A stretch of DNA of 64,000 nt, taken from assembly GCF_039654945.1 (NCBI RefSeq), contig NW_027361722.1, positions 4,712,001 through 4,776,000 on the forward strand, read 5' to 3'. Of this stretch, positions 1,386 through 56,400 are shown piece by piece. The first letter of the stretch is position 1, and every line of letters begins with the position of its first letter. The notes under the pieces were generated by a model. That model ran no database searches, was not told the DNA's origin, and saw nothing but the letters and a program-made list of their open reading frames with translations. The position numbers and the translations under genes were made by a program. This DNA is from Dendrobates tinctorius (lineage: Eukaryota).

Positions 1386-4300
1386 CTGGAGGACAGTGTG
1401 GTGCAGTAATGAAGATTTGTCTATACCCCGCTGTGGCGCCCCCTGCTGCGTACACAGTGCAGCTTCTGTCATCTGCACCCACCTTTGGTTGTGCTCTGCT
1501 GCCATCCTCTGCTTCTCCCACATGGCCATCTTCTCCTCCTGCGCCACGTTCAGCCAGGAGAGGAACGTCCGTCTCTGGAGATTCGCCTTGTGGCGCCGCG
1601 CTGCTCTCTCCTCCTGGATGGACAGGTAGTCCTTATACTGGAAGATGGAGGCATGCATTACTATGGTCCCTATGACAGTGATGCCGGGCCGGGGCTGCGA
1701 CATAAAACTCTGCTACATCTGTAACAGAACCGAGCAGGAGCTTCTGAATCGCAGTCATTTTTGCTAGGAGTTAAAGGGACAGTCCACTGTTCAGGAGGTC
1801 TGCATTAACCAGCGTCCCTTCCTGCTTGGTTGCTCGGGGTCCTCTCCCTTAGTGTTGGATGTCCAGGAGATCCTCGTGGAGCCATGAGCGACGGGGCACA
1901 ACTCACCTTCAGCCAGTGCCGGAAGATTCTCCGTAAGAGTAAGGTGGTGCACAGCTGCTCTGCCCGCCGGACCTTCTTGGACATGAGCTCCCTCGCTGCT
2001 TGTGACCAGCAGAGGAGGCCGCGTCTCAGGTGGGCACGACGGTGATGAGACTCTGCCCGCTGCACAGGAGGAAGGTGGAAAGATGGCAGAAGATTAGGTT
2101 GGGATTGGAAACAGTGAGTAAGCTTGTGAACAGCCGAGCTCCTATAATGCAGGGTCTGTACAGTAAATACATCATTAATCTCCATGGGGACACTGAACAA
2201 GTAACACATCCTGGGGGATTGCAGCTCTGAAGCCATTAATGCAGCATGTATACTGTACATAGAGGGTTCATCATGCTGGATATTATACTATGATGTCTGA
2301 GGTGGAGCTGCAGCCTCCAAACCGTAGAAAAAGATGACGTGTCCGCCTGTGACACCACCGGCGCTCTGTCGTTACCTCCACGTTCTGACTGCGTTGCACC
2401 AGCAGCTTCTTCCAGGGCGCCAGGCCGCAGGACCTCAGCAGCCGCTGCTCATTGTGCCGCTCCGCTCTCCGCAGCAGCTCCTCTTCTTTCTGCAAACGCC
2501 TTTGCTTCTCCTCTTCTTTCTGGCAAATCAAGTGACCAGGATGAGCGGTCAGCAACATGGCGGCTGTGCGGGTCGTCTTACGATCAGGCGGTGGGCCCGG
2601 TGCGGTGTGGGGGGGGGAACACTACCTGTCTCTGCAGCCTCTTCTCCTCCCTCTTCTTCTCCAGCTGCGCCTCCTTCTCCGCCAACTCCAACTGCAGCCT
2701 CTGCTCCTCTGCCGCCCGCAGCTCCGCCTGTAGGTGAGGAGGGAGACGTAGCGTCATCTAGGGCCACAGTCACACATCCGTCTACAAAGGATCTGTCAAA
2801 TATGGACGACACGCAGATGGACGCTGCAGCACAATGTCCGCTGTCTGCGTGTCAACCGAGGCTCACGGATCCCCAATCACATATCTGGAGTGTGACCGGC
2901 TCTGTGACCTCTGGGGGTCGTGCGCTGTCCCCCACAGCTGTGTGAATGGCGCCTTACAGATATATGTGGAGACCCGGTAATTGTAAGATTCCTCACCAGC
3001 CTCTCCTCCTCCCGCCTCTTCCTCATCTCCTCCAGTAATCGCCTCCTTTCTGCTCGCTGTGCCGCTCTCTCCTCCATGGCTGCAATGAGAAAGTAGGAAA
3101 AAAAAAAATCAATGGAAATGATAATCACAAGAAAGCCGCTTCTGAAAGTTGTCAGCATTGCCCCCCCGCTGTGAGCAACCGTGACATCGTGCATTCTCCC
3201 TCCTCGTCATCAACCGTGACACCACGAGTCCTCCCTCCGTCATCAACAGTGACATCGCGCATCCTCCCTCCCCACATCAGCAACCACAACAATGCATGTC
3301 CTCCCAGTAAGCAACTGCAACACCATGCATCCTCCCTCCCAGTCATCAACCGCAACACAGCGAGTCCTCCCTCGCCGTCATCGACTGCGACTCCATGAGT
3401 CCTCCCTCCCATCAACTGCGACACCGCGAGTCCTCCCGTCATCAACCGTGACATTGCGCATCCTTCCTCCCCGTCATTAACCGCGACACCACGAGTCCTC
3501 CCTCTCCGTCATCAACCATGACATCGCGCATCCTCTCTCCCCATCATCAACCGCAACAGCACGAGTCCTCCCTCTCCATCATTAACCATGACATCGCGCA
3601 TCCTCTCTCCCCGTCATCAACCGCAACACAGCGAGTCCTCCCTCTCCGTCATCAACCATGACATCGCGCATCCTCTCTCCCCATCATCAACCGCAACAGC
3701 ACGAGTCCTCCCTCTCCGTCATCAACCATGACATCGCGCATCCTCTCTCCCCGTCATCAACCGCAACACAGCGAGTCCTCCCTCTCCGTCATCGACTGCG
3801 ACACCATGAGTCCTCCCTCCCATTAACTGCGACACCGCGAGTCCTCCCTCCCGTCATCAACCATGACATCGCGCATCCTCTCTCCCCATCATCAACCGCA
3901 ACAGCACGAGTCCTCCCTCTCCGTCATCAACCATGACATCGCGCATCCTCCCTCCCCATCATCAACCGCAACAGCACGAGTCCTCCCTCTCCGTCATCAA
4001 CCATGACATCGCGCATCCTCTCTCCCCGTCATCAACCGCAACACAGCGAGTCCTCCCTCTCCATCATCGACTGCGACACCATGAGTCCTCCCTCCCATCA
4101 ACTGCGACACCGCGAGTCCTCCCTCCCGTCATCAACCATGACATCGCGCATCCTCTCTCCCCATCATCAACCGCAACAGCACGAGTCCTCCCTCTCCGTC
4201 ATCAACCATGACATCGCGCATCCTCCCTCCCCGTCATCAACCGCAACACAGCGAGTCCTCCCTCTCCGTCATCGACTGCGACACCATGAGTCCTCCCTCC

Positions 4301-7300
4301 CATCAACTGCGACACCGCGAGTCCTCCCTCCCGTCATCAACCATGACATCGCGCATCCTCTCTCCCCATCATCAACCGCAACAGCACGAGTCCTCCCTCT
4401 CCGTCATCAACCATGACATCGCGCATCCTCCCTCCCCGTCATCAACCGCAACACAGCGAGTCCTCCCTCTCCGTCATCGACTGCGACACCATGAGTCCTC
4501 CCTCCCATCAACTGCGACACCGCGAGTCCTCCCTCCCGTCATCAACCGTGACATTGCGCATCCTTCCTCCCCGTCATTAACCGCGACACTGCGAGTCCTC
4601 CCGCTCTGTCAACCGTGACATCACGCATCCTCCCTCCCCATCAGCAACCGCAACACCACGAGTCCTCCCTCTCCGTCAACCATGACATCGCGCATCCTCT
4701 CTCCCCGTCAACAACCGCAACAGCACGAGTCCTCGCTCTCCGTCATCAACCATGACATCGCGCATTTCCCTCCCCATCAGCAACAGCAACACCATGAGTA
4801 CTCCCTCCCGGTCAACCGCGACACCGAGAGTCCTCCCTCTCCGTCATCAACCGTGACATCGCGCTTCCTCTCTCCCCGTCATCAACCACAACAGCACAAG
4901 TCCTCCCTCTCCGTCATCAACCATGACATTGCGCATCCTCCCTCATCAGCAACAACAAAGCGCGTCCTCCTCGTGAGTAACCGCAACAATGCATGTCCTC
5001 CCAGTGAGCAACTGCAACACCGTGCAGCCTCCCTCCCCGTCATCAACCGCGACACCGCGAGTCCTCCCTCCCTGTGAATTTGCCCCGTTCAGGTCCCTCC
5101 AGCCTCTGGTTCCTACCAGTCACTGCAGGATGGGGGGTGGAGGATCCGCCATTTCTCCAGGGTGCGGTGCTGTGCGGGGGGCTTGTACTGGGCCGTTCCG
5201 ATGGTTTAGATGATAGCGGCAATCTATGAAGACACAACCCAGACAGGACACATGGGCAGCAGTGATGTCCACACTGGAGGCGACACCCAGCTTTCCTGGA
5301 GTCCTGAAGGACACATCATCTAGTTATGAACATATTCTACATATTGGCAGCAGACGTGGCCGCCGTTTACTGTCTCCCAGCCGTGCCTGATCAGATATAA
5401 AACCACGGCTTGTTTATAAAGCAGCGCTGAATATGAGAGGTTTGGTACCTGGGAGGCGCCTCACGTGCCGGGCGGCTCGGGGTAGGAGGCGCACTGCCCG
5501 TCCTCTGGGTGACCCTGGGCCCAGACAGCTCTGCAGTCACAGCGGTGGCGTTTTTGGCTTCCCGCTTGGCGATCATCAGTCTCTGGTTCTCCATTAGTCC
5601 CAGGATCATCTCTTTCTGCTCCTGCAGCTGCCGCCTTTGCTCCTCGATCAGCTTCTGCTGGAAAGTGTGACGGTTCTCAAAGTTTTCCCCGTACGGGGGG
5701 ACCTTCCTGTGGTGGGGAGACCCCTGGGGGGCGCTGCGATGCTGCTGCAGCTCTTCGGGAGTGAGGGACGCATGCTGCAGGGTGACCTGCCAGGCGTGCC
5801 GGGGACCAGCCTTTGGCTTCTCTGCGCTCGTCTTGTGGGATGTGACGGGAGCCTCGGTCTTGGAGCTTCTGCTCGTGTCCACCTACAAAGAGACAAAGTC
5901 TTTCTATGAGATCAAAAGATTTCAGCTCTGAGGGAAGTCAACGCTGACCTGAAATAACGCAGCTGCAGTGTGAATCCAGTGCGATTAGTCTCAGCACCTG
6001 CAGTCCGGCTCCATATGAACTGACCCCATTACTAAGCTTTCTGGTGATAGGAGGAGTTACCCGAGTCTCGGTGGCCTCGTGGCTGCGGACAGTCGCCTCC
6101 GTCTGCTCTGCGTTGCTCTGTCTCCACCCCCCGACCGATGAGGCTGCATCCAGGAGAGCCGCCATCTTCCTCTTAGTCTCCTCTTTCTGCGCTTCCAGCT
6201 CTCGCTTCTCCTTCTCGCCTCGACACCAGAGCTGCCATTCAATCAGGCAGCGGCGCAGGAGGCGATAGCTGTAGCACTCCGCGGCGGCCTGCAGTTTCCT
6301 GCGGTCAGTGAGTAAGAGCACCCAGGACATAGATGGGAACAGTGATACAAGTATGTGCAACCATTCACACGTGTCCTCCTAGGATCACGCACCGTTTCTG
6401 ATCCCTCAGGTTCTTCTCCATCTGTCGGGTCTCCCGCTCCATCTTTCCTGACCACACGTGGTCCCTCCAGGCCCGGAACGTCCTCAGCTGAAGCCTCCAG
6501 TCGGCCAGGGCCCGTGCCTTCCCCATCTTCACCCTGCGCTCCAGGACCAGCTTGTACCAGGCTGAGAAGTGATTCTGAAGACACTGCCGAGACGTGAGCA
6601 CAAGAATCAGGAATAATGACCCCACTAATGTGTTTAGGGGGCGCCAGGGTCCGGGGAGAGCCGCCTGTAATCAGCACAATAATTAGAAATGTTCCCAAGC
6701 CCCTTCCTGTTCCGTCACTGAAGTGGCTGATAACAGGGAGCACTAGGCAGTCTCCCCCCAGCATGAAGTGGCAGATAGCAGGGAGCACTAGGCAGTCTCC
6801 CCCCAGCATGAAGTGGCAGATAGCAGGAAACACTAGGAAGTCTCCCCCCCAGCATGAAGTGGCAGATAGCAGGGAACACCAGGCAGTCTCTCCCCCCAGC
6901 ATGAAGTGGCAGATAGCAGGGAACACTAGGCAGTCTCCCCCCAGCATGAAGTGGCAGATAGCAGGGAACACTAGGCAGTCTCCCCCCAGCATGAATTGGC
7001 AGATAGCAGGAAACACTAGGCAGTCACCCCCCAGCATGAATTGGCAGATAGCAGGGAACACTAGGCAGGCTCCCCCCAGCATGAAGTGGCAGATAGCAGG
7101 GAACACTAGGCAGTCTCCCCCCCCAGCATGAAGTGGCAGATAGCAGGGAACACTAGGCAGTCTCCCCCCAGCATGAAGTGGCAGATAGCAGGGAACACTA
7201 GGCAGTCTCCCCCCAGCATGAATTGGCAGATAGCAGGAAACACTAGGCAGTCACCCCCCAGCATGAAGTGGCAGATAGCAGGGAACACAAGGCAGTCTCC

Positions 7301-10300
7301 CCCAGCATGAAGTGGCAGATAGCAGGGAACACTAGGCAGTCTCCCCCCAGCATGACGAGGCAGATAGCAGGGAGCAATAGATTACTTGCTGTGGCCCTCT
7401 CACCCTGTGGTTTTCAGCGTAGATCTGATGGAGCAGCTCCTGGATCTTCTCCCGTTTCGCCAGTCTCCTCTCCGGCTCCTGAGACGCTGGCTGTGCCGGC
7501 TCCTTCTTCTTCTGCAGCTCCTGCCTCTTCACCTCTCTACAAAGACAAGAAACCTCCAGTAAGGAGAACAGAATGGATCTGAGAGTCTTTGGAAAGTTGA
7601 GTGACAGCTAATACAGCCGCCATTATGGCAGTCACCCAACTTTCCCAGGTCCTTGAATGACTGCCATAAACATGCATGGACTCAGATACGTATCTAATGT
7701 GCCACTCAGGTGTCTGGGAGAGCTGGGTGAAGCCTGTGGATAGATGTCATGTATGGCGGCTGTCAGTACGGAGTAGTGTCATGGGGGTCACACTCTTACG
7801 CTCACCTCGCCTCCTCCATCACTCTCCGACGCGCGCCCATCTCTTTGCGCAGTTTCACCATCTCTCTCTGGATCTCCTCCTCCTCCTTCTTGGCCTTCAG
7901 CGCTTTCTGCTTGTTCTCCTCCTGCAGCAGCAGCTGCGCCTCTGACAGAACAGACTTCTTCAGCGCCAGCTCCTGCCTCCGCCGCTCCATCTCCCTCTGC
8001 CGTTGAGCCCGGTTCTCCTTCACCTGCGCAAATCACGCGACATCTCGTTATGATCCTGTATGTGGGACGGCTGATTATCGCATAAACAATTCATTGATGG
8101 ACTGAACCTCTACAATTATTACACTAGAATTGTCCAATAAATAGTTAGGATCTGGCACTTCCAAGATACATATAATCAGAGAAATTTCCGGACTTACATA
8201 ACAGCATTTGCCGAAAAAAATGAAGAGATCCAGAAAAAATTATATTAAAATGACATATTTATTAGTTAGACATAAAAATTAGAAAAATAAGAGAAAATGC
8301 CCAGTAGGAGGCGCACATATGCCCTCACAGTACTAATAATGAGGCATGTGTAGGTAATAGAAGTCAGATATGGAAAACAATTAAAGAGCCATAATTAACT
8401 CCATAAATCCTCACAACCATGAAAAAGGCCAATGTATTTAATAAATAAGGTACAGCGGCAACATGACCACTAAGTCTAAGTCCCTATACCAATAAAAGTA
8501 TATAACAAAGTATAACGGCAACATGACCACTAAGTCTAAGTCGTTATACCAATATAAGCGAACAACTAATAACCCAGTGAGCCAAATGAGGATAAATAAG
8601 CCATAAGTAACATTACCTAGACGCTGTGAGCACAAATAGCGGTGGGCGCTGCAGCCTCCTCCACCACACGCCCCCGGAAGAAGCTTGTTGCGAAACGCAC
8701 GTTGGGGTGGAGGAGGCTGCAGCGCCCACCGCTATTTGTGCTCACAGCGTCTAGGTAATGTTACTTATGGCTTATTTATCCTCATTTGGCTCACTGGGTT
8801 ATTAGTTGTTCGCTTATATTGGTATAACGACTTAGACTTAGTGGTCATGTTGCCGCTGTACCTTATTTATTAAATACATTGGCCTTTTTCATGGTTGTGA
8901 GGATTTATGGAGTTAATTATAGCTCTTTAATTGTTTTCCATATCTGACTTCCATTACCTACACATGCCTCATTATTATTACTGTGAGGGCATATGTGCGC
9001 CTCCTACTGGGCATTTTCTCTTATTTTTCTAATTTTTATGTCTAATTAATAAATATGTCATTTTAATATAATTTTTTCTGGATCTCTTCATTTTTTTCGG
9101 CAAATGCTGTTATGCAAGTCCGGAAATTTCTCTGATTATATGAACCTCTACAATGCAAGATTTACCGAGCAGTGCTGCAGTGTAAAGCATAGAGGAGGGA
9201 CAGAGATAGAGCTTAGATCCAAATGGGAGGTGGATTTTAGACTTACTTAAACTCCCAACAGACAACGCATCCAAGCTAGAGTCACTTAATTATAAAGCAA
9301 AGCTGCAGTGTACAGCATGGGTCAGAGGAACGTCCGCTACTCAATGGGGTAGAAGCCAATAATATAAAGGGGGAAATTTGGGGAAGTAATTTGTGTGATT
9401 TTTCACCGCACCTGTTGGTGTCTCAATTCCATGGTGACTCGCAGGTCTTTTTGTGTTGTGTTCTTTATTTTCTCACTCTTGAGACTTTCCAATATCCCAG
9501 AATCCGCCACTTCCTTCTCTAAAAGTGTCTGCAGGAAGTCCTGAGTGTTTGCGCTCTCTGTTTCTTTCTCCAGATAATTATAGAGATCTGCAAGATGCAT
9601 GAAATAAATTGTGTAATGCTTATTTCTAGGCCTAAAGGTCTCTGACCGTGAGCAGCTAGCCAAAACAGAGGACTATGGCGGATGCGCTAGAACGTGGATG
9701 GCAGCAGTGTGTCTCTCCCCTGATCAGGCCCACATAAAAAATTACATTAATACTGTATACATGGAAGCTGTGATTAAAGGGAGGATGTCAGACCCCATTA
9801 TAGTGCCCAAAAATACTACATGGCCTTGTATTGTGCAGCTAGCCAACATAGGGAAAGACTGTAGCCGACAATGGTACTAAGCTGAGGATGGATTCCATGT
9901 GCTGCTATGTGGTTCCCTTACACAGCCCCAAACACAAACACACACAAAAAAATCACTGTATAGAAGACATTAAGGGGTGAGGTTAGACCCCCTTACAGTC
10001 CATAATATACATAGTGCATCACATTGTCTAGCTAGGCACAAGACAGCCTGTGGGTTGTTGAGGTTAGGTTAGGCCCCATTACGGTACCCCAATAATTTCC
10101 CTCATCATCTTACCGTCAAATCTGCTATACTTGATGAACTCTGGAGGGGACGGTCTTGCTGGCTCCATAATGTCCACTTCGGGATCATTGTCATCATCGC
10201 TCGCAAGCTCTACTTTCAGCTTATTGCTCAACCACCCGCTCAGCAGATCCTGGGCTGAAGAGTTAAATATTAAAGTCACCAAAGTACATCCCCACCATCC

Positions 10301-13300
10301 ATAGTTATATGATCCTCCTTTCTTGTACAGTGTAGAAAGAAACTGTGCTGCTGCCTGGAAACCTCCATGAAGCTGCTGTCGGTGGAGATTATAAATTAAT
10401 AATTACTCTAACAATGGCAGGTAAGACCACCAGGATAAGTGACCCCCATGAACAACGGCCAAACATTCTGATTGTACCGTATCTCCATTGGATATTTCTC
10501 TGCTCATTCACAGCAGGACAATAATACATCATAAAAGGACTAATAGAAACACAAAATAAAACCAAAAGATGCATCAACAGCAGCAGCATGCTGATGGTTT
10601 CCAAACCAAGGAAAAGAAACAGAAACCTAGCAACAAGCTGTAATGTCCATACAGCTCTGATCCTTCAGTCTCCTCCCGGGACGTTACCTTCAGTATAAGC
10701 ATCGTCATGGTCGTGCAGCTGATCCACAGACTGCAGGGTCAGCGCTGGGTGCGGGGGTTTCTGGGCACGCTGGGTGGGCTTCTTGGGTGAAAACACTTCA
10801 GATACAGCAAATTCTGATGCCTGCTCCACGCGCTATACAGGAGAAGTGAGAATTAGCAAAGGACGAGCTTCAGCACATCAGACACAGGCGATACAAGATG
10901 GGGAGGGGACACGATAGGGTTCTCATGCGGGCATCACATGGGGAGGCAACAGGGCCTTGGGAGGGGTTGTTAATAAACGCAACACAGAGGGTTGAAGGGA
11001 CAGTAACAAACGTAACACAGGGCAGTAATAAATGTGACACAAGGGGCAGTAATAAACAACAAAGTTACAGGGATACTGTGTGGTGTAGTGAGCCTGTGTG
11101 TCAAGCAGGTGGCGCTCACCAGGTTATTTTCTCACCTGCTGTAACTATCCGCATACACAACAATAATCCGTTATGATTGCGGCATTTTTGCTTTTTTTGT
11201 GTTTTCCTCTTTTTTTATTATGTTTCTTTGGTGCAGATTTCATATAATTTTGTTGTTTGGGGTTTTTTTTGCGTCACCACACATCTCCCCCATAGAAGCC
11301 TCGGGAGAAAACCGTCCCAGAGCCGCACAGTTCAGCCTCTCCGCACACTGAGGACACAAGTGAAATCACATCCACTTTACTGAGCTGTCAATCACAGAGA
11401 ATAGTTCAGCGTCTGCGCGATGTGAGAACAGTGTCTGGATGAGAATCTATAAGTCTCTGTGCCGCGTTCAGCAGTAGATAGAAAAATCTTCAGAGTTAAG
11501 AATCCTCAGTGGTTGATTAATGGCTGCTAGTATCAACCACGGAGGATTCTTAATTCTGAATATTTCTGGATGAGAACCTGGAAGCCGTTATGTGGCCCCG
11601 AGGAGCCGGCCCCAGATCAGCGGCTGCAGCGCTCCCATTATGTGGCGACTATATACACGGAGCAGCCAGGAGTATACAGCACCACGGTCTATATACACAG
11701 GGGACAGAGAGAAAAGATGGAAGTGTAGCATCTGCATCCGAGCCTCTGCTGACATCTGAAGCCTGCAGGGTCCGTACCTTAATCCAATGCTCCACGTTGT
11801 CATAGTCAAAGGCCGCCTGCAGAAACAACAAGATCAGATCATAACAGTGTATCTAATCCTATCCTGTGTGATACTGACTGCTGATCCGTGTATCTAATCC
11901 TCTCCTGTGTGATACTGACTGCTGAGCCGTGTATCTAATCCTCTCCTGTGTGATACTGACTGCTGAGCCGTGTATCTAATCCTCTCCTGTGTGATACTGA
12001 CTGCTGAGCCGTGTATCTAATCCTCTCCTGTGTGATACTGACTGCTGATCCGTGTATCTAATCCTCTCCTGTGTGATACTGACTGCTGATCCGTGTATCT
12101 AATCCTCTCCTGTGTGATACTGACTGCTGATCCGTGTATCTAATCCTCTCCTGTGTGATACTGACTGCTGAGCCGTGTATCTAATCCTCTCCTGTGTGAT
12201 ACTGACTGCTGAGCCGTGTATCTAATCCTCTCCTGTGTGATACTGACTGCTGAGCCGTGTATCTAATCCTATCCTGTGTGATACTGACTGCTGATCCGTG
12301 TATCTAATCCTCTCCTGTGTGATACTGACTGCTGATCCGTGTATCTAATCCTCTCCTGTGTGATACTGACTGCTGAGCCGTGTATCTAATCCTCTCCTGT
12401 GTGATACTGACTGCTGAGCCGTGTATCTAATCCTCTCCTGTGTGATACTGACTGCTGAGCCGTATATCTAATCCTATCCTGTGTGATACTGACTGCTGAG
12501 CCGTGTATCTAATCCTCTCCTGTGTGATACTGACTGCTGATCCGTGTATCTAATCCTCTCCTGTGATACTGACTGCTGAGCCGTGTATCTCATCCTGTCC
12601 TGTGTGATACTGGGCCGTGTATCTAATTCTATCCTGTGTGATGCTGAGCCGTGTATCTAATACTCTCCTGTGTGATACTGACTGCTGAGCCGTGTATCTA
12701 ATCCTCTCCTGTGTGATACTGACTGCTGATCCGTGTATCTAATCCTATCCTATGTGATACTGTCTGCTGAGCCGTGTATCTAATCCTCTCCTGTGTGATA
12801 CTGACTGCTGAGCCGTGTATCTAATCCTCTCCTGTGTAATACTGACTGCTGAGCCGTGTATCTAATCCTCTCCTGTGTGATACTGACTGCTGAGCCGTGT
12901 ATCTAATCCTCTCCTGTGTGATACTGACTGCTCATCCGTGTATCTAATCCTCTCCTGTGTGATACTGACTGCTGATCCGTGTATCTAATCCTCTCCTGTG
13001 TGATACTGACTGCTGATCCGTGTATCTAATCCTCTCCTGTGTGATACTGACTGCTGATCCGTGTATCTAATCCTCTCCTGTGTGATACTGACTGCTGAGC
13101 CGTGTAGCTAATCCTCTCCTGTGTGATACTGACTGCTGATCCGTGTATCTAATCCTATCCTGTGTGATACTGACTGCTGAGCCGTGTATCTAATCCTCTC
13201 CTGTGTGATACTGACTGCTGATCCGTGTATCTAATCCTCTCCTGTGTGATACTGACTGCTGAGCTGTGTATCTAATCCTCTCCTGTGTGATACTGACTGC

Positions 13301-14778: not shown

Positions 14779-17700
14779 GTAAGAGAAGGCTGCGAGACAG
14801 AGGAGCTGCATAGAGGATGTCAGGAGAGGGCACCCAGCGGCACAGAGGATGTCAGGAGAGGGCACCCAGCGGCACAGAGGATGTCAGGAGAGGGCACCCA
14901 GCGGCACAGAGGATTTCAGGAGAGGGCACCCAGCGGCACAGAGGATGTCAGGAGAGGGGGCCCCAGCGGCACAGAGGATGTCAGGAGAGGGGGCCCCAGC
15001 GGCACAGAGGATGTCAGGAGAGGGGGCCCCAGCGGCACAGAGGATGTCAGGAGAGGGGGCCCCAGCGGCACAGAGGATGTCAGGAGAGGGGGCCCCAGCG
15101 GCACAGAGGATGTCAGGAGAGGGGGCCCCAGCGGCACAGAGGATGTCAGGAGAGGGGGCCCCAGCGGCACAGAGGATGTCAGGAGAGGGGGCCCCAGCGG
15201 CACAGAGGATGTCAGGAGAGGGGGCCCCAGCGGCACAGAGGATGTCAGGAGAGGGGGCCCCAGCGGCACAGAGGATGTCAGGAGAGGGGGCCCCAGCGGC
15301 ACAGAGGATGTCAGGAGAGGGGGCCCCAGCGGCACAGAGGATGTCAGGAGAGGGGGCCCCAGCGGCACAGAGGATGTCAGGAGAGGGGGCCCCAGCGGCA
15401 CAGAGGATGTCAGGAGAGGGGGCCCCAGCGGCACAGAGGATGTCAGGAGAGGGGGCCCCAGCGGCACAGAGGATGTCAGGAGAGGGGGCCCCAGCGGCAC
15501 AGAGGATGTCAGGAGAGGGGGCCCCAGCGGCACAGAGGATGTCAGGAGAGGGGGCCCCAGCGGCACAGAGGATGTCAGGAGAGGGGGCCCCAGCGGCACA
15601 GAGGATGTCAGGAGAGGGGGCCCCAGCGGCACAGAGGATGTCAGGAGAGGGGGCCCCAGCGGCACAGAGGATGTCAGGAGAGGGGGCCCCAGCGGCACAG
15701 AGGATGTCAGGAGAGGGGGCCCCAGCGGCACAGAGGATGTCAGGAGAGGGGGCCCCAGCGGCACAGAGGATGTCAGGAGAGGAGGCCCCAGCGGCACAGA
15801 GGATGTCAGGAGAGGGGGCCCCAGCGGCACAGAGGATGTCAGGAGAGGGGGCCCCAGCGGCACAGAGGATGTCAGGAGAGGGCACCCAGCGGCACAGAGG
15901 ATGTCAGGAGAGGGCACCCAGCGGCACAGAGGATGTCAGGAGAGGGCGCCCCAGCAGCACAGAGGATGTCAGGAGAGTGCAGAGGGGGTCCCAGCAGCAC
16001 CGAGGATGTCAGGAGAGGGCGCCGAGCAGCACAGAGGATGTCAGGAGAGGGCGCCCCAGCAGCACAGAGGATGTCAGGAGAGGGGGCCCAGCAGCACAGA
16101 GGATGTCAGGAGAGGGGGCCCCAGCGGCACAGAGGATGTCAGGAGAGGGAGCCCCAGCGGCACAGAGGATGTCAGGAGAGGGAGCCCCAGCGGCACAGAG
16201 GATGTCAGGAGAGGGGGCCCCAGCGGCACAGAGGATGTCAGGAGAGGGGGCCCCAGCGGCACAGAGGATGTCAGGAGAGGGGGCCCCAGCGGCACAGAGG
16301 ATGTCAGGAGAGGGGGCCCCAGCGGCACAGAGGATGTCAGGAGAGGGGGCCCCAGCGGCACAGAGGATGTCAGGAGAGGGGGCCCCAGCGGCACAGAGGA
16401 TGTCAGGAGAGGGGGCCCCAGCGGCACAGAGGATGTCAGGAGAGGGGGCCCCAGCGGCACAGAGGATGTCAGGAGAGGGGGCCCCAGCGGCACAGAGGAT
16501 GTCAGGAGAGGGGGCCCCAGCGGCACAGAGGATGTCAGGAGAGGGGGCCCCAGCGGCACAGAGGATGTCAGGAGAGGAGGCCCCAGCGGCACAGAGGATG
16601 TCAGGAGAGGGGGCCCCAGCGGCACAGAGGATGTCAGGAGAGGGGGCCCCAGCGGCACAGAGGATGTCAGGAGAGGGCTCCCCAGCAGCACAGAGGATGT
16701 CAGGAGAGGGCTCCCCAGCAGCACAGAGGATGTCAGGAGAGGGCTCCCCAGCAGCACAGAGGATGTCAGGAGAGGGCTCCCCAGCAGCACAGAGGATGTC
16801 AGGAGAGGGCTCCCCAGCAGCACAGAGGATGTCAGGAGAGGGCTCCCCAGCAGCACAGAGGATGTCAGGAGAGGGCTCCCCAGCAGCACAGAGGATGTCA
16901 GGAGAGGGCTCCCCAGCAGCACAGAGGATGTCAGGAGAGTGCAGAGGGCGCCCCAGCAGCGCCGAGGATGTCAGGAGAGTGCAGCGGGCACCTCAGCAGC
17001 ACAGAGGATGTCAGGAGAGTGCAGCGGGCACCCCAGCAGCACAGAGGATGTCAGGAGAGTGCAGCGGGCACCCGAGCAGCACAGAGGATGTCAGGAGAGT
17101 GCAGCGGGCACCCGAGCAGCACAGAGGATGTCAGGAGAGTGCAGCGGGCACCCGAGCAGCACAGAGGATGTCAGGAGAGTGCAGCGGGCACCCCAGCAGC
17201 ACAGAGGATGTCAGGAGAGGGCGACCCAGCAGCACAGAGGATGTCAGGAGAGGGCGACCCAGCAGCACAGAGGATGTCAGGAGAGTGCAGCGGGCACCCC
17301 AGCAGCACAGAGGATGTCAGGAGAGTGCAGCGGGCACCCCAGCAGCACAGAGGATGTCAGGAGAGTGCAGTGGGCACCCCAGCAGCACAGAGGTTGTCAG
17401 GAGAGGGCGACCCAGCAGCACAGAGGATGTCGGGAGAGTGCAGCGGGCACCCCAGCAGCACAGAGGATGTCGGGAGAGTGCAGCGGGCACCCCAGCAGCA
17501 CAGAGGATGTCGGGAGAGTGCAGCGGGCACCCAAGCAGCACAGAGGATGTCGGGAGAGTGCAGCGGGCACCCCAGCAGCACAGAGGATGTCGGGAGAGTG
17601 CAGCGGGCACCCCAGCAGCACAGAGGATGTCGGGAGAGTGCAGCGGGCACCCCAGCAGCACAGAGGATGTCGGGAGAGTGCAGCGGGCACCCCAGCAGCA

Positions 17701-20700
17701 CAGAGGATGTCGGGAGAGTGCAGCGGGCACCCCAGCAGCACAGAGGATGTCGGGAGAGTGCAGCGGGCACCCCAGCAGCACAGAGGATGTCGGGAGAGTG
17801 CAGCGGGCACCCCAGCAGTACAGAGGATGTCGGGAGAGGACAAACTAGTGCAGCAGGGTCCCCCAGAGTATCTCAGGGGAAGATCGATAAGTGCAGCGGG
17901 ATCTACAGCAGCACAGAGTGTTTCAGGAGATGACAGGTTACATGGCAGTAATATAAGCAGCAGATCCTCAGGCTGTGACTTCTTCGCAGGGCAGAACATC
18001 AAGAAGTCCTGGAGGAATATAAGGAGGGGATCGGGAAGTTTGCAGGTGAGCTGCCATCTACCTGACGTGCCCCAGTCGGGATCATCTCCCCCAAACCTGC
18101 CTGTGGTTGTATATCTGGATTTTGTGCCTTTCCTCCCTTCAGATGTTTCTGTTCATCCATATTTCTGCAGTGTCTCCGGGTCGCCCATTCTTATTGATTT
18201 GCCTTGTTCCATCACCTGATGCCTCTTCATCTCGAGGTGATGGACGCTGTGATTACATCCTACTGAATGTTCATAAATATCCCCACTGTGTGCGGTCCTC
18301 TCATTCCTCTTCCCTGAGCATCCTCCGCTGAGACCCTTCCCCCTCTGTCTTCAGGTCTGTGTCTCTTTACTCGTTTTCTGAAAGTTCTTTGCTTTGGGAA
18401 ATTGCTGACACCAACAAGTGTTTCCTGAGGAGAACATGGTGGTCAGTAACGAGGTTTTGTGTGCCTTTATTTAACGGGTCAGTCATCGATGAATTCCGCA
18501 CTGCCAATCCCATCTCCTTGAAATACTTGGAGAACTTCTGAACTGGACGTGGATTCTAACCGTCCGGGCTCCACAGTTTACTCTGCACTGATGTTTTAAA
18601 ATGTCAATGCAGAGTAAGCAGCTTATATGAGATTGACAGCCGCTCCGCACCTCCCCAGACACAGCCAGACTCCTCACAGAGCAGAGATATATGGCTGAAC
18701 CAGCGCCTCATCAGGAGCTCCGGCTCCCTCCATCCACCCAGTGATCACATGACTGCGGGGTCCTCGGAGACATACAGGGGTTGGACAAAATAATGGAAAC
18801 ACCTCACGTTTTGGCATCATAATCTTCGAACATGTTATAAACATGTCACGGTTTGCATGTGGTAATGTTTTGTAGTTGATTATTTGTGTGATGTGATATG
18901 TGTATGTAAATTAACTGTTTGTTTTGCAGAATTGTAAGAACATTGATGAGAACCTGATACCAATGGCAGACCTCTCGGATTTTCAAAGAGGCCAAATTGT
19001 TGGTGCTCGTATGGCAGGCGCTAGTGTGACAGAAAGTGCCCGAATGCTTGGCGTGTCAAGAGGTACTGTCTCCAAAGTAATGACTGCGTTAGAAAGAGAA
19101 GGAAAAACGTCCGCAGCAAAGCACAGGTCCGGCCGAAAGTCGAAGTTGACTGAGAGAGACCGTCGGACTCTAAAGCGAATTGTGAGAGAGGATCGCAACA
19201 CCACGGCTCCGAAAATCACTGCTGAGCTCAATGATCACCTACAGAACCCAGTGTCCACGAAAACTGTCCGTCGGGAGCTGCACAAATCTGGATTCCACGG
19301 AAGAGCTGCAATTAGAAAACCTCTGCTCTCAATGACAAATGTTTCCAAGCGTTTAGCGTGGTGTAGAAACCTCCAGAGTTGGTCCCTCGAGCAGTGGAAA
19401 CGTGATATTCTCAGACGAATCATCGTTTACCCTATTTCCGACCTCCGGCCGAGTGTACCTTTGGAGAAAGCCGAAAGAAGCATTCCATCCAGACTGCCTT
19501 CTCCCAACCGTAAAACATGGCGGAGGTTCTGTGATGATCTGGGGTGCTATTTCATGGAGCTCCGCCGGGCCAATGATATCCCTTCATGGAAGAATTAACA
19601 GCCGCGATTATTTAGGCATTTTGGGCGACCAAGTGCATCCTATGGTTCAAGCACTGTTCCCGGAGGGGAATGCCATCTTTCAGGAAGATAATGCACCAAT
19701 TCATACAGCTAGAATCGTTAAAGCATGGCACGAGGAATATTGTAATGAAGTGGAGCATCTCATCTGGCCCCCACAATCCCCAGACCTCAACATTATTGAG
19801 CATTTATGGCCGATTTTAGAGATTCAAGTTAGACGTCGATTTCCACCGCCATAGTCGCTCAAAGAACTGGAGCGTGTTTTACCTGAAGAATGGGCGACAA
19901 TTCCTTTGGAAACCATTCACACCTTGTATGAATCCATACCTCGGAGAACTGAGGCTGTAATCGCCGCAAAAGGTGGACCTACAACACATTAAGCTAAGTT
20001 TGGTTGATGTTTCCATTATTTTGTCCAACCCCTGTTTGAGCCTCAGCTACAGGGGAAATAAGAAGAAAGTATTACTGCGTGAAAATGCCCCAAAGGCTTT
20101 TTAAGTTAAATAATTAGTAAAAAAAAGAATCTCTGTTTCTAGCCCGGCCCCTGTGGGATAACGTCATATAGTTTTACATTGTTTAGTGTCAGAGATTCAC
20201 AGAGCGGCAGAAATGTCAAATCTTAGACCAGACCGTCCTAAACGTGCAGGATTTAGAACCGACTGGTCTAAGCTATTGGATGCTTTACATTGTGCCAGGA
20301 ATGTGGGTCAGAGTTTTGGCACATTGTGTCGCGCATTAAAGAGCGCCGCTTTTCAGCATGATCCTGCCCTCTAACCTGAAAAGTCATAAAAATGTCTAAA
20401 ACACATCATCGATCTGGTGCAAGTCATGAAAGATGGCGCAAATTACTCCACAAGACTCTGTTCATCCATCCCTTTATTTCCCTTTCTTTCCCTTCCCCTT
20501 TCTTTTTTGCTTTTCATTCATTTCCTTTCCCATCTTTCCTTCTTCCCTACCTTCATTTTCCTCCTTTTCTTTTTTTCCTTTTATTCACTCCCTTCCCTTT
20601 CCCATGGCCAGTATATAAGGGCTGTATCTGTGGTCATGTGTCACTTATGATCTATCTTTCCATCTATCTATGATCTATCTTGTGACCTGCGGCCTGTCGT

Positions 20701-31445: not shown

Positions 31446-31879
31446 CTGCCACCCCAACTCTCCTTGTCCACCATAGCAACCAATCACACTGCACCTTTCA
31501 TTTTACCAGCGAAAAAAAAAAAAAAAAAGCTGCGTTCTCATTGGTTGCTGTCGTAAACTGAAAGCTGAGCTCTGATTGGTCCCTGAGGAGCTGGTATATT
31601 TTACAGGTCTTGTAATATTGCCATATTGGGTAATGCATTGTGTGTATATAGATATTCTTGTGTTGAATAGATATAGGGAAAGTGTAGGGTTTAGATTTAG
31701 CCCACTAGGGGGGGGCACAATAGAGTAAGATAGGATTTAGCTCGCTAGCAGGGGCCGGCTGAGGGCGCTTCCTGGGAGTCTGGAGAAGGAGTGTGAGCCG
31801 GGAGCTCAAATATGAAAAAAAAAAAAATTATCGAACCTCCCCCTTTTTTACCCCATAAGGCTGGTCCTTAAGGGGTTAA

Positions 31880-32153
31880 GGCTAGTTCCACACTAGCGTT
31901 TATTCCACGCAGCGCACGGTGCCGCTAAGCCCCGCCCCCTGCCGGCTCCCTGCCCGCCCCATCCGGTCATCACTGTCGCACATGGACGCTTGCGATCTGC
32001 GCACCCTATCTTTAGCATGTTGCATTTCGGCGCACCTTCAAAAATGTGCAGCGCACGCCAAAATCCTACTAGCGCACGGGCAGGGAGCCGGCAGGGGGCG
32101 GGGCTTAGCGGCGCTGTGCACTGCGTGGAATAAACGCTAGTGTGAAACTAGCC
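31880..32153. mobile_element. PIF/Harbinger-type palindromic MITE
   Basis: TIR GGCTAGTTCCACACTAGCG / CGCTAGTGTGAAACTAGCC, flanked by TTAA on both sides. Confidence 0.8.
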
Positions 32154-32157
32154 TTAA

Positions 32158-33376
32158 CCCCTTAAGGACCAGCCTTATGGGGTATTTTGTTTGTGAATTT
32201 CTATTTTTCCCTCCCAGAGCCATAACTTTGTTATTTTTCCGTTAATATGGCCAAGTGAGGGCTTTTATTTGCGGGATGCGTTTAACCTTTGAATGACACC
32301 ATTGGTTTTACCATGCTGTGTACTGGAAAACGGGGAAAAAAAATTCAGTCAGGTGAAATTTTTTAAAAAAGTGCAAACCCATAAAAGTTTTTTTTTTTTT
32401 TTTTTTTTACCATGTTCACTAAATGCTAAGACTGCCACCTGCCAGTCTGATTCTCCAGGTGATTACGAGTTCACAGACACCAAACATGTCTAGCTTCATT
32501 TTTATTTAATCGGTGAAAAAAAATTTAAAACTTCGCTAAATAAAAAAATAAATTGCGTCATTTTCGAGACCCGCAGCGTCTCCATTTTCCGTGATCTCAG
32601 GTTGGGTGGGGGCTTATTTTTTGCGCACCGAGCTGACGTTTTTATTGATAGGATTTTTGATCGCCCATTATTGCATTTTGTTGCAATGTTGCAGCGATCA
32701 AAAAAATGTAATTCTGGCGTTTTGATTTTTTTCTCGTTACACCATTTACCAGTCGGAGTCATTATTTTTATATATTGATAGATTGGGCGATTTCGAACAT
32801 GGCGATACCAAATATGTCCATTTTTTTCTTGTTTTATTTTGAATGGGGCAAATGGGGGATGGTTTAAACTTTTATATTTTTTATTTTTTTAAAAACTTTT
32901 TTTTTTTTTTTACTTTCTACATTCTTCAATAGTCTCCATGGGAGACTAGAACTTGCAATCATCCGATCGTCTATGCTACACTTAGGGCTGCAGCCCTGCT
33001 CTATGTAGTAGAAATAGTCACTTGCTATGAGTGATGACCGCCGGGCGGCGCTCATAGTGATCCAGCAATGACAACCACAGGGGTCTCCTGCATTCCCCGG
33101 GTTGTCGTGACAATCCATTGGCGACCCATGATCATGTGACACAGGTGCCGATGGGCAGGAGACACTCGTGGTTGTCATTGCAGAGATTGACAGCGGCATG
33201 TAACATGTTAACAGCTGCGGGTGGAATGCAATTCCACCCGTGGCTGTTAGGGGGACATGAGAGCTGATCAGATCAGCTGTCATGTGCCGGAAAAGGTGCA
33301 GGCTCATGGCCGGAGCCCGCAGCAGACAGGAGGAGGCGTCCAATGTAGGGTATAGCCGGCATTGGAGGTTAAAGGG
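32158..33376. mobile_element. TTAA-flanked non-autonomous DNA element (piggyBac-like)
   Basis: TTAA|CCCCTTAAGGACC ... GGAGGTTAAAGGG|TTAA; non-coding interior. Confidence 0.5.
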
Positions 33377-35399: not shown

Positions 35400-38300
35400 G
35401 TGAGTCCCAATGTTACCAGGCTTTATCGAAATTAATTCTCACCTACTCTTTCAAGAGCTCTGCTTGCTGGCAGTGAATGTTTGCATAGTTTCGGGTCCTC
35501 CGATGTTCACGTCTTACAGAAGGCACCAATGTCTGGCACTACGTAGGTACACAAGGTATGACGTCCACATGCAGGACCGGCTCCAGGTTTCTACGGCCAT
35601 TGGTCGACCCAGTGGGCTCCTCTTTTTTATTTTTCTCTCCTCTTCTCCTGAGATCCAGAACTTTTTTTTATTTTTCTGGTGATAGAGTTCTATAAGGGAT
35701 TATTTTACGGTACAAACTGTAGTTTTTATCACTTCCATTTTGGGGTCCATGCAACTTATCTGAACTCCGCAAAATAAATTGAGGTGTTGCAGTCTGGAAA
35801 GACACGCCGCATGTGTGTCTCCGCAGGGAAGCCGCGGGTGTCGGAGCACGCATAGTGGACATGGGATTTCTTGAAATCCCATCCACTATGCTGAAACATC
35901 TGGCTGCTGTGGGTTGGATGCTGTGGATGTACGCAGCGTCCAACCCACAGCATTTACTGACCGTGGGAACATACCCGTATAGTATGTGCACACGATCAGG
36001 AATTGCTCAGGATTTGACGCAGGTGAAATCTGCATCTGAGGTCACTGGCAGGTCACCTGCGTTTTTGATGCGTTGTTTCATTGCATGCGTTTTTTTTTGC
36101 CACTTGAAATAAAGCTAATTGAAAGTTAGCTTCTGGGAAGTAAAAAAAAGTGATTTCCTGTATTCAGATATATTGGGGTATGTGCACACGGTCAGTAAAC
36201 GCTGCGGGTTGGATGCAGCGTACATCCGAAATGTCCAACCTACAGCGTCCAGCTGTTACAGTGTAGTGGATGGGAATTCAAGAAATCCCATGCCCAATAT
36301 GTGTGCACTGATGCCCGCGGCTCACCCGTAGAGAAGGACATGAGGCGCATCTCTCCAGACCGCAGCATGTCAATTTATGTAGTGGAGACGCTCCATCTCC
36401 GCTGTGTAAATTACACATTCTCTATCATTAGATGCGGTAAAACTGCATTATCTTCCTAATCACATGTGTGTTACAGTGGGTACGGAAAGTATTCTGACCC
36501 CTTTAAATTTTTCACTCTTTGTTTCATTGCAGCCATTTGGTAAATTCAGAAAAGTTCATTTTTTCCTCATTAATGTACACTCTGCACCCCATCTTCACTG
36601 AAAAAAACAGAAATGTAGAAATATTTGCAAATTTATTAAAAAAGAAAACCTGAAATCCCACATGGTCATAAGTATTCAGCCCCTTTGCTCAGACACTCAT
36701 ATGTAAGTCACATGCTGACCCTTTCCTTGTGATCCTCCTTGAGATGGTTCTTCTCCTTCATTGGAGTCCAGCTGTGTGTAATTCAACTGATAGGACTTGA
36801 TTTGTAAAGGCGCACACCTGTCTATATAAGACCTCACAGCTCACAGTGCATGTCAGACCAAATGAGAATCATGAGGTCAAAGAAACTGGCCAAGGAGCTC
36901 AGAGGCAGAATTGTGGCAAGGCACAGATCTGGCCAAGGGTACAAAAGAATTTCTGCAGAGCACAGTGGCCTCCATAATCCTTAAATGGAAGAAGTTTGGG
37001 ACCACCAGAAGTCTTCCTAGACCTGGCCGTCCAGCCAGAGCAATCGTGGGAGAAGAGCCTTGGTGAGAGAGGTAAAGAAGAACCCCAAGATCACTGTGGC
37101 TGAGCTCCACAGATGCAGTAGGGAGATGGGAGAAAGTTCCACAAAGTCAACTATCACTGGAGCCCTCCACCGATCGGGCCTTTATGGCAGAGTGGCCCGC
37201 CGGAAGCCTCTCCTCAGTGCCAGATATATGAAAGCCCGCAGAGAGTTTGCTTAAAAACCACATGAAGGACTCCCAGACTATGAGAAATAAGATTCTGCGG
37301 TCTGATGAGGCGAAGATAGAACTTTTTGGTGATGATTCTAAGCGGTATATGTGGAGAAAACCAGGCACTGCTCATCACCTGCCCAATACAATCCCAACAG
37401 TGAAACATGGTGGCAGCATCATGCTATGGGGGTGTTTTTCAGCTGCAGGGACAGGACTGGTTGCAAATGAAGGAAACTTGAATGAGGCCAAGTACAGAGA
37501 TATCCTGGATGAAAACCTCTTCCAGAGTGCTCTGGACCTCAGACTTGGCCAAAGGTTCACCTTCCAACAAGACAATGACCCTAAGCACACAGCTAAAATA
37601 ACAAAGGAGTGGCTTCAGAACAACTCTGTGACCATTCCTGACTGGCCCAGCCAGAGCCCTGACCTAAACCCAATGGAGCATCTCTGGAGAGACCTGAAAA
37701 TGGCTGTCCACCAACGTTCACCATCCAACCTGACGGAACTGGAGAGACTCTGCAAGGAAGAATGGCAGAGGATCCCCAAATCCAGGGGTGAAAAACTTGT
37801 GGCATCATTCCCAAGACGACTCATGGCTGTACTAGCTCAAAGGGGCTGAATACTTATGACCATGTGATATTTCAGTTTTTCTTTTTTAATAAATTTGCAA
37901 AAATTTCTACATTTCTGTTTTTTTCAGTGAAGATGGGGTGCAGAGTGTACATTAATGAGGAAAAAATGAACTTTTGTGAATTTACCAAATGGCTGCAATG
38001 AAAGAGTGAAAAATTTAAAGGGGTCTGAATACTTTCCATACCCACTGTATATATGTTCCATGCACTGGAATCAGAGGTGTATATACCATACACTCATGGT
38101 TAGTTCCCCTGTAACCGGCCTAGTAGTGGACCCACCCGCAGCCGCGTCCATCATTTGTCAGTCACTTACGTAATTGTCCTGACAATTTGAGGAAGCAAAG
38201 TTGTGTCTCTGTGACAAACTGGTTTCAGCGATGGGATCTGTGTGACCCCCCTCCCCCTGGCTATTCCCTTGACAAACACCTGCAGAAAAATATGCACTGC

Positions 38301-53416: not shown

Positions 53417-56400
53417 TTTCTCTAGTCACTTTCCACGACAGCCACCTTGGAGGTTGTCTCCCCGCCCTAATAGGGGACAGGAACACAAAGAGGTTAAATA
53501 ACCCTCCCCTTCCTGCTACCTTAGTGTTTTTCCTGTCCCCTATCGGGGCATGAAGAGGTTACAAGGGGCTGCCGTAGCCAGTGAGCGGAGCCCCTATGTA
53601 CTCACAGCTGGGCAGCCAAGGTCGGGGGGTTTGCCTCTCCTCCTCCAAGCGCTGCTCCCGCTTCCACCGCTGGTGTGACTCGGGACGTCGGCCGCTCCTC
53701 CCGCGCCCTCCGGGGTAAAGCGGGGCGGTATGGTGCCTGCCGGGGTCCTGCAGCAGCTCCCCGGCTTCCTCCTTCCTCCCACGCTGTAATGGAGGCCGCG
53801 CACGTCTGAGGGGGCGGGCAGTAGATCGGAAGGGACGGTGGCGCGCACTTCCAGTTTGCGTTCCCCGGGCGTTCCTGTGATGGGAAACGCGCGCCGGCAC
53901 CTGGGAAAGGGATCCGAGCACAGCGGGGGTCGAGCGATGGTTCCTCCCCAGGGACAAGGGGAAGGAGGAGCACCCAGCAACGAACGCAGCAACACCCAAA
54001 TAAGGGTGCCACGGCTCCAAGGTAAGCGCAGTGTATCTGTGGTGTGTACAGACACGGATGGTGAGAAGCCCTCGACTGCAGCATCTGCGGAGCCCAGCGT
54101 TCCCCCTCCTACAGTTAGTAGCAGGGCCGGTCCCTTGTCTGTCAAAATTGGTGGCACAGGTCTGAGTAAGCCTTCTCTTGCTTCTTACAGGAAGACAAGG
54201 CCTCTGCCCCTAGAAACCCCCGCAAATGTGGTATATGTGGTGCCAGGTTTCCTTCTGACTATAAGAAGAAGTTATGCCAACCTTGTACGCAGAATATCCT
54301 GCGTACCGAGCAACCCTCCCTATTTGACAGCATAAAGACTCTCATTAGACAGAAGGTTCAGACCTTCATGGCAGCCCAGACCCCGGTGGCTCAGGGCCCT
54401 CCCCCAAAAAAGAGGAAAAGGGCACCTACGGAAGCCGACTCAGATTCAGGAGAAGTCCGTTCCTCAGGATCGGAGGATATTTGGGTGGAGGAGTTGGTCT
54501 CCATGGTAAGAAATACCATGGGAGTGGAGGAGGAGGTCAAGCTCTCAGTCCAGGATGAGATGTTTGGGGGGTTGAAACCCAGGGGTAGAAAGGGTTTCCC
54601 GGTTCATGAAGTTATACAGGACCTAATAGCTCAGGAGTGGTCCTCCCCCGAGAAGGCACTCACTGTGCCCTCTGAGCTAAAAAATCGGTTTCCCCTAGAA
54701 GGTGACAATTCTGTTTGGGAGATCCCTAAGATAGACGTTCAAGTCTCTAAAGAAAACTAAGAAAACGTCCCTGCCCTTTGAGGATGCTTCCCAATTGAAG
54801 GATCCTATGGATCGCAAAATAGAAAGTCACCTCAAAAAGTCCTGGGGAGCTTATATGAACCTGCTCAAAGCAAATATTGCATCCACCTGCGTAGCCAGAT
54901 CTTTGTTCTTCTGGCTGCGTACGTTGGAAGACCACCTATCAGGGGGTACCCCCAGAGATGAAATCTTAGACTCCCTGTCAATCCTCCAAAAGGCAACAGG
55001 TTATTTAGCCGATGCTTCAGGAGAAACGGTACGGGTAGCAGCAAGGTCCCTAGTCCCTCGTCGCTCCATCGGTAACCCGACTGAACCAGGACGTATCGAA
55101 AGCCCTACGGATACTCGAGACCCTAGGGTGGATTCTGAATCTCCAGAAATCGGCCCTCTATCCTTCCCCGAAGAAAAAATTCCTGGGGATCCTCTTAGAT
55201 TCAGAGAAGAGGACGTCCTTTCTTCCCGAGGATCGTCAGGCAGACCTTCGGCAGAGAATAATTCGGTTCAGGGACCAAAGGGCACCGACGCTGAGGGACG
55301 CCATGTCTATCCTGGGTTCCCTGACATCGTGCATTCAGGCGGTATCCTGGGCACAAGCTCACACGCAAGTCCTCCAGTCATACGTCCTGGTAAACGCAAG
55401 TGTGGCGACCCCAGGGGTATGGTCGCCACACTGGCTTTGCCTTCCTCCAGGGGAGGGTAATGCCAGGCTTGGAAGCAGTGATGGGTCTCTCCAGCAGTTA
55501 ACCTAATGCATGCAACACAGTTCCACTCCGGGCCAGCAGGGGGAACTCTGAACCAGGATTCTGGAAAGGGGTGTCCTCTGAGGGCCAGGAGGGAAAGAGT
55601 TCAGATAGTCTGCGGAGGGTGAAGTGTGCAAACGGGAGGTGCGAAGCTGAGAGGTTGAGCTGCGGAAGGCGAGCTCCCTCAGCTTGAGAGCGCACAGAAC
55701 TGGAGCCTGGTCTCCACGGTGGTACGGATACTGACGGTCCTACCACAGATACCAGAGGAGTAGGAGACTGTAAATGCCCTGCTCCCAGCAAAGACTTGGG
55801 ACACAACAGCAATTGACTAGTGAGCCAGGACTCAGGAGAGGAGTCCCCGAGAGAGGCTACAGCTGTCTGTCATACAAGTAAAGTTCTAGGAACATCTGAA
55901 GAGAGGCATTTCAGAGTAACTAAGTACTGGAGTGCTTCACACTACAAAGCCCTAGGAAGGATACTGCACAGCCCTTCTGCTGAGAGAGAATCCTGATCTG
56001 CTTCCAGGCTAACCTGCTCCAATACCATCTGTAATCAGGACTCTGGACTGCATATACTCAGTAAAGGTACAGAAACTACAACCGCTGTGTCTTGTCTGTT
56101 CACTACGCTTTCGGCACTGCTACATCCCCATGCCAGCTACATCTACACTGCCCTGGGACTACAGCTCCACCTGTGGGGAGCTTTACCATCTAAGCTGCAC
56201 ATACCATCAGTCCCAGTGGATCTGTATGCAGCGTTGGCCTAACACCATATTTTCCAAACACCACGGGTGGCATCACGAACTATCTTACCATTAACTACAT
56301 CTCCCCATTGCTTGGGCGCCCAGGGCCACGGACCGGGTCACCGCTGCTGTGACACATCCCCCTGACACCGGCCTGGTACCGAGTACCCCACAGCCCTGGG

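Follow-up and report, generated by a model that had tools for sequence, protein, structure and literature searches.

What kind of element displays a ribozyme-like motif in the loop of a long foldback, and may a hammerhead with G at core position 4 still cut? Both questions are raised by an insert of 1,024 bp (8117-9140) lying between two 14-bp target duplications in the window, that is, the whole 64,000-nt stretch of Dendrobates tinctorius contig NW_027361722.1 analyzed here (4,712,001 to 4,776,000). A first-pass annotation, made from the sequence alone, had described near-perfect inverted arms, a 14-bp flanking direct repeat and a hammerhead-like motif with a U4G core between the arms, and had proposed a non-coding Penelope or retrozyme-like element. 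The parts are largely as described (Table 1). The flanking repeat is TGAACCTCTACAAT on both sides, the motif letters lie at 8672-8707 on the + strand, and the two arms can be aligned over about 437 nt, with mismatches at 5 internal positions and 1 at the inner junction and with one 60-nt gap; a repeat search recovers the same inverted pair. Three of the 5 mismatches are of A/G type, on mixed strands, and are not interpretable as an A-to-I signature. The left arm had been drawn as 8169-8665, and 8118-8168 also belongs to the element. What had been taken for an extra duplication of about 60 bp in the left arm proved to be the reverse: the unit is double in most other copies, which match the right arm as two overlapping pieces (1-205 and 134/150-472), and it is the right arm that has lost one.

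The insert sits in a host intron, presumably intron 5 of CCDC191, and starts 79 nt from its 3' splice site. The motif is on the + strand and the host gene on the - strand, so it is antisense to that gene as first proposed, and the suggestion that the arms fold the intron into long dsRNA is borne out by a predicted fold of the host-sense strand in which 93% of bases are paired. Contigs of three runs (their RNA status is guessed) are uninformative either way, with none spanning the insert and none spanning the element's intron. We note that one contig of run X3, of the same guessed status, skips the next host intron (7537-7805).

Table 1. Coordinates in the window of the insert, its motif and its surroundings
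Feature	Position	Strand	Description
Host intron GT..AG	8024-9411	-	1,388 nt with insert, ~350 without
Left target-site duplication TGAACCTCTACAAT	8103-8116		14 bp; from sequence
Left arm	8118-8665	-	pLTR fragment, from +3 (2 nt past predicted cut) to long (tail) 3' end
PLE tail	8118-8168	-	left arm only; 51-53 nt between two preferred 3' ends
Two 60-bp tandem units	8429-8548		left arm; family state; right arm keeps one hybrid unit
Right arm	8666-9140	+	pLTR fragment, from predicted transcription start (-38 from cut) to short 3' end (GATTATA)
Minimal type I hammerhead-like motif	8669-8709	+	from sequence layout and stem II covariation
Stem I	8671-8674/8704-8707	+
Core	C3 8675, G4 8676, A7 8679, G8 8680; extra A 8682	+
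Stem II	8683-84/8690-91	+	2 bp
GAAA	8692-95	+
Stem III	8695-96/8701-02	+	loop GCAC; family loop GCGC
H17 (U8703)	predicted cut 8703/8704	+
Predicted 5' splice site AG/GTAATG of the element's own 5'-UTR intron	8755-8760	+	donor-like site in related families
Right target-site duplication TGAACCTCTACAAT	9141-9154		14 bp; from sequence

We are confident that the insert consists of two head-to-head, 5'-truncated pLTR (pseudo-LTR) copies of a coding, Neptune-type Penelope-like element (PLE), and that its motif is the family's predicted minimal hammerhead, with G4 throughout the clade and decayed here; on this reading the insert likely arose when reverse transcription was primed from the two strands of a single staggered cut. 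That the locus is an ordinary, young PLE insertion we regard as almost certain. The right arm has at least 89 matches in its own genome, in the 40 scored of 565 candidates, and in other copies the upstream sequence goes on to show a promoter-like region with CCAAT and TATTTAAA, an AT-rich 3' UTR and broken frames for RT and GIY-YIG. One of them, L426, is a nearly whole sister element: direct pLTRs about 5.0 kb apart, both 76-84% like the insert, flank a coding frame of about 1,030 codons (141 + 887 aa, with one stop between). RVT_1 is recognized in L426 at E=1.3e-6, just under the curated cut-off, and GIY-YIG in the L032 copy at E=0.0015, likewise under its cut-off; the pLTR is linked to an RT plus C-terminal GIY-YIG ORF in L426, L032 and L035, with Pfam scores just under the curated cut-offs. 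The link between arm and PLE ORF that the first-pass annotation had asked for is thus found, and with it the Penelope-like origin that it had proposed.

The frame carries DKG and, before the GIY-YIG-like motif, the CX2CX2C linker CGMCKGC, which agrees with the Zn-finger-like linker pattern CX2-5CxxC of the Neptune clade. The RT has 27 relatives, of which the named ones are frog proteins and several carry PF00078 or PF01541, and it is on these motifs and relatives, rather than on a tree with reference PLEs, that we assign the family to the Neptune clade. A sequence search of the PDB with the RT piece returned no meaningful match. One frog protein, P0002, whose annotation is that of a receptor activity-modifying protein 1 isoform, includes a stretch 73% identical to the RT region of the element; it may be either an artefact of the gene model or an exonized PLE.

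The insert is pLTR material, with a putative first exon, a retained element intron, which is predicted to make up the rest of each arm downstream of the donor, and the tail. The donor-like site after the short exon recurs across families. Three copies (L035, L076, L426) run past the tail downstream into an acceptor and ATG whose positions are conserved among them, the tail ending about 25 nt before the element's predicted acceptor and the ATG lying about 15 nt beyond it. The arrangement resembles that of the Neptune-clade EN+ PLEs in the parts of PMC8557442 drawn on here, with pLTR-ORF-pLTR order, RT with C-terminal GIY-YIG and a Cys linker, and the predicted 5'-UTR intron would have counterparts in Penelope and Chlamys-3 described there. 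The tail, however, is longer than the 30-40 nt given for Neptune-clade PLEs in those parts, and the G4 core is unlike theirs.

Alternatively, the insert might stand on its own as a non-coding foldback, MITE or retrozyme that depends for its function on a hammerhead displayed on a hairpin. It is without an ORF, and its arms (8169-9142) are about 99% alike as against 90-93% for the nearest other copies found. We consider this reading very improbable, and indeed largely refuted, for the arm ends are asymmetric, the inner junction varies from copy to copy, the pLTR is linked to a coding frame, and the hammerhead fold is disfavored in the insert. Animal non-LTR retrozymes, as far as described in the portion consulted of bioRxiv 10.64898/2026.07.22.740005, share a type I hammerhead, a PLE relationship and an occurrence in frog genomes, but they are tandem non-coding monomers, each with its hammerhead, while this insert has no tandem monomers, the window holds one motif, and the insert, non-coding in itself, is a fragment from a coding family for which the link to an ORF is seen. 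The non-coding or retrozyme-like element of the first proposal is therefore given up. The identity gap between arms and copies could be due to a source RNA that is unsampled or has decayed, or to conversion of one arm by the other.

How, then, would two pLTR copies come to stand head to head? Copies of the family have two preferred 3' ends about 52 nt apart, and 31 of its 33 head-to-head pair rows combine one long and one short arm; target duplications of 11-17 bp accompany 14 of the 33, with 14-15 bp in 10. Inverted 5'-truncated copies, a tail at one end and a pLTR hammerhead, all seen here, are described for Neptune-clade EN+ PLEs (PMC8557442, in part), and the Anolis Poseidon element PAc, according to the sections used of Frangieh 2024 (PMC11167929), likewise inserts with nicking and extension of both strands, has two start sites of RT that define the tail, and uses uncut RNA as its main template. 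Together with the pair rows and target duplications, these published features make two-strand priming, followed by joining of the cDNAs, the likely route. The endonuclease would nick both strands 14 nt apart; one cDNA would begin at the tail end and the other about 52 nt inside; the right-arm cDNA would run to the capped start of an uncut RNA and the left-arm cDNA would stop 2 nt past the predicted cut, on a template that was likely cut; and the two ends would then be joined to give the head-to-head insert. A canonical U4 family is likewise rich in tight head-to-head pairs, which makes it routine for a motif to lie in the loop. The motif does sit in the loop, as first described, but its display there appears to be incidental, a consequence of the head-to-head meeting of two cDNAs.

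The motif itself has the layout of a minimal type I hammerhead, as had been claimed: a three-way arrangement with C3-G8, GAAA, A15.1-U16.1, H17, an extra nucleotide after A9 and G10.1-C11.1, the departure being at position 4, where the canonical core has U (or C). The motif pattern has 355 genomic matches against 0 for the reversed control and is therefore not a matter of chance. A scan with the Rfam models, the check that the first-pass annotation had recommended, gave no hammerhead family at E<=10, only hairpin look-alikes. The minimal PLE hammerheads of Cervera and de la Pena 2014 (PMC4209133, in the parts available to us) are alike in being of type I, in the extra nucleotide after A9, in G10.1-C11.1, in a palindromic stem III region, in an H17 that is often U or C, and in a predicted dimer. 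Their descriptor, however, asks for cuganga, for 3 bp or more in stem II and for the absence of loop III, as opposed to the G4, 2-bp stem II and GCGC loop found here; its cuganga requirement excludes G4, and in the supplement text that accompanies the paper CGGA appears only in a loop.

The copy in the window is predicted to be inactive as a ribozyme. The left arm has no hammerhead core and the insert copy has no TATA region. A8699 is private to this copy (the family has G at L3c in 58/62) and breaks the stem III palindrome through which the family could dimerize, the computed self-duplex of the 10-nt palindrome being -4.9 kcal/mol here versus -15.1 kcal/mol in the family. When a short RNA beginning at the start site is folded, stem I reaches >0.9 but stem III 0.02. 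Within the foldback RNA the hammerhead fold is less stable than the MFE by 6.3 kcal/mol, and stem I drops to about 1%. Taken singly, the locus is ordinary; it is the family that is of interest.

The U4G variant is no accident of one copy but the family state: of 62 clade copies, 52 have G at position 4, 9 have A and 1 has T, and the 9 with A fit CpG decay. Genome-wide, 1,362 pattern sites have the G4 core (CGGAAGA), with A7 in 1,319 (96.8%) and C/G/U7 at 43; restricted to A/U7, G4 has 1,333 sites (control 35) and U4 1,319 (control 4). C4 has 1,835 sites (control 28) and A4 has 389. All are counts of sites, not families, from one descriptor whose controls span 4 to 36. Position 7 is near-fixed as A with G4 and variable with the other two, with 31 A7 and 69 U7 in the first 100 U4 rows counted by hand among the matches listed, and 55 G7, 19 U7, 15 A7 and 11 C7 in the first 100 C4 rows counted likewise; most of the 43 non-A7 G4 sites have loops that also occur in G4-A7 families, each such loop turning up once or twice. 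The most numerous cores that this descriptor finds are those with C4 (CCGANGA), mostly with G7, and some of their groups have A at H17.

The G4 families share the TATA, motif, short exon and donor layout with U4 families. The second pair of stem II is paired in 62/62 groups (C-G 47, G-C 13, A-U 1, G-U 1) against a mean of 39 in shuffles, 0/2000 of which reach 62, and in 40/40 G4 groups; for 30 loci of this set the search pattern itself prescribed GC/GC in stem II. Covariation in stem I was not above shuffles, and the patterns had fixed part of that stem. Several independent origins of G4 were also considered and did not find support: an endonuclease tree of 32 rows, with a weak backbone, needs only one for the G4 families placed on it, which have 63-94% identity to the query as compared with 49-56% for C4 and U4 families. 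The tree leaves out G4 families with a 3-bp stem II or a CCCAC loop, and its row L135 carries an unrelated endonuclease. With one origin sufficient, the G4-A7 combination may be one event long kept rather than repeated covariation. Some G4 copies may be transcribed; an L070-type G4 motif and its upstream flank are matched by a contig of run X1, whose RNA status is guessed.

Whether such a core cuts might be read from the 5' ends of genomic copies, and mapping these offers a cheap fossil readout of cutting. In vivo cutting by PLE hammerheads, and its purpose, are described as an open question in the sections used of PMC8557442 and PMC11167929. We called 5' junctions with patterns starting 9 nt after the predicted cut, in 94 window-clade sites (95 matches), two GUC families (38/41 and 38/38 sites) and a third of 13. 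The majority of truncated copies have their 5' ends at -26 to -39, some 30 nt downstream of a TATA-like box, a cluster that we predict to be the start of the uncut RNA, and uncut templates dominate among family copies. Within the window clade, 36 junctions of the 94 sites fall at -28..-39, 6 at +1 and 2 at -1. The pooled 183 G4 sites have 26 junctions in +8..-22, after removal of L153, L158, L034 and L351 as indel miscalls or non-family: 12 lie at +1/-1/-2, which are 3 of the 30 positions, 9 at +2..+8 and 5 at -3..-22, among them that of L152 at -5 with a 4-nt microhomology. If junctions were uniform the clustering at the cut site would have P ~3e-6, a value to be read with the sites not fully independent (two arms per insert, duplicated loci). 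The GUC families contribute +1 four times, -1 once, -2 twice and -3 once. In the canonical U4 family 3 of 8 nearby junctions are at the cut (56 sites among the matches listed and one collapsed arm), including an insert in which both arms start exactly at +1 where they are joined.

Copies that start exactly at the predicted cut suggest that the G4 variant may still cut in vivo. All eight copies exactly at +1 (L050, L060, L127, L139, L141, L172, L240, L407) are preceded by an A, possibly through untemplated addition or a modified 5' end. The position of the motif in a non-coding first exon, with copy ends piling up at the cut, is unlike PAc, where the text used of PMC11167929 places the cut 26 nt inside the ORF and reports no reads ending at it.

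The junction peak can be explained by cleavage and also by stalling of the reverse transcriptase at a palindromic duplex. In the GUU families -1 is exactly the last position of the palindrome AACGCGCGUU, and stalling at the dimer duplex would therefore give the same +1 peak; the GUC data are too few to decide. We give a little less than an even chance to the reading in which the element is the same but the G4 motif does not cut, being kept as a folded or dimerizing RNA signal, with the peak due to pausing at stem I and the palindromic duplex. It accords with the palindrome edge at +1 in GUU families, with junctions at +3..+7 within or adjoining the 3' strand of stem I, with a position 4 that is relaxed across the genome (U, C, G), with the low activity of core mutants (PMC9901934) and with the lack of effect of HHR mutants on insertion in vitro in the parts used of PMC11167929. 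It does not readily account for the retention of the remaining core letters and H17 in families with a rewritten loop II, for +1 as still the commonest single position in GUC families (4/8), or for a profile that resembles a template end, with a sharp 5' edge and a tail toward the 3' side.

How might a G4 core work? C3-G8 closing GGAA forms a GNRA tetraloop, and GNRA loops are listed together with the hammerhead U4/G5 turn as U-turn motifs (PMC1874588, in part). We infer, at roughly balanced chances, that in the family C3-G8 closes GGAA as a GNRA-type turn that replaces the U-turn, and that the motif slowly cleaves a minority of transcripts; it would probably do so as a palindrome-paired dimer, or else with the help of protein. 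Published mutagenesis of the core in its canonical context (PMC9901934) found low activity of core mutants, which counts against the GNRA turn as a catalytic rescue and leads us to predict weak activity for G4. The more specific scenario, in which the GNRA-type C3(GGAA)G8 hammerhead of a frog Neptune clade cleaves a fraction of transcripts in the germline and reverse transcription of the cut RNAs yields genomic copies beginning at the scissile bond, strikes us as possible and rather unlikely; under it the present locus would hold one arm from uncut RNA and one from cut RNA.

Alternatively, G4-A7 might be selected as DNA, CCGGAA just past the start site serving as an ETS-type promoter element that the hammerhead tolerates. 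GGAA requires both G4 and A7, the motif lies about 30 nt downstream of the TATA-like box, and the pLTR upstream also has CCAAT and a CCGGAAGTGACGT element, which we take to be an ETS-CRE composite. The site is, however, GGAAGA and not GGAAGT, the preferred form; U4 and C4 families keep the promoter-exon-donor layout without CCGGAA, and the junction peak would be left unexplained. We consider selection as DNA improbable. Upstream of the motif, at L015:1130-1150 and in sister pLTRs, CCGGAAGTGACGT, CCAAT and TATTTAAA occur together and suggest that the pLTR carries a strong Pol II promoter.

Natural core variants of hammerheads have precedents. In the main text of Perreault 2011 (PMC3088659; Figure 5 lies outside that scope) position 4 is variable as it is here, U4C is known, slower in vitro and viable, and G4 does not appear; core variants are rare in that survey, whereas G4 marks a whole clade here. 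The CYGANGA descriptor (PMC13481778, as far as covered) also allows variation at position 4, namely C. In the parts of the literature covered here, we found neither a G4 PLE hammerhead nor copy ends at the cut. We would give an even chance to the view that the G4 core is a variant for which no published description was found and for which the genome offers suggestive evidence of cutting. It is missed by the CUGANGA and CYGANGA descriptors, and its sites are about as numerous as the counted U4 sites. If G4-A7 cleaves, the consensus of the hammerhead core and the descriptors used in censuses need widening; if it does not, a conserved non-catalytic role of the fold is implied. The genome of D. 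tinctorius offers G4, C4 and U4 clades side by side.

Other repeats surround the locus. The window holds a transposase in two broken frames at 18915-19854, presumably Tc1/mariner-like, and further inverted-repeat elements at 36472-38049 (with Tc1-like ends), 53421-58662, 31849-32184 and 35765-36387. Large tandem or minisatellite arrays lie at 14800-17900, 3150-5080, 6700-7390 and 11807-12500, the last under very deep contig cover in runs X1-X3.
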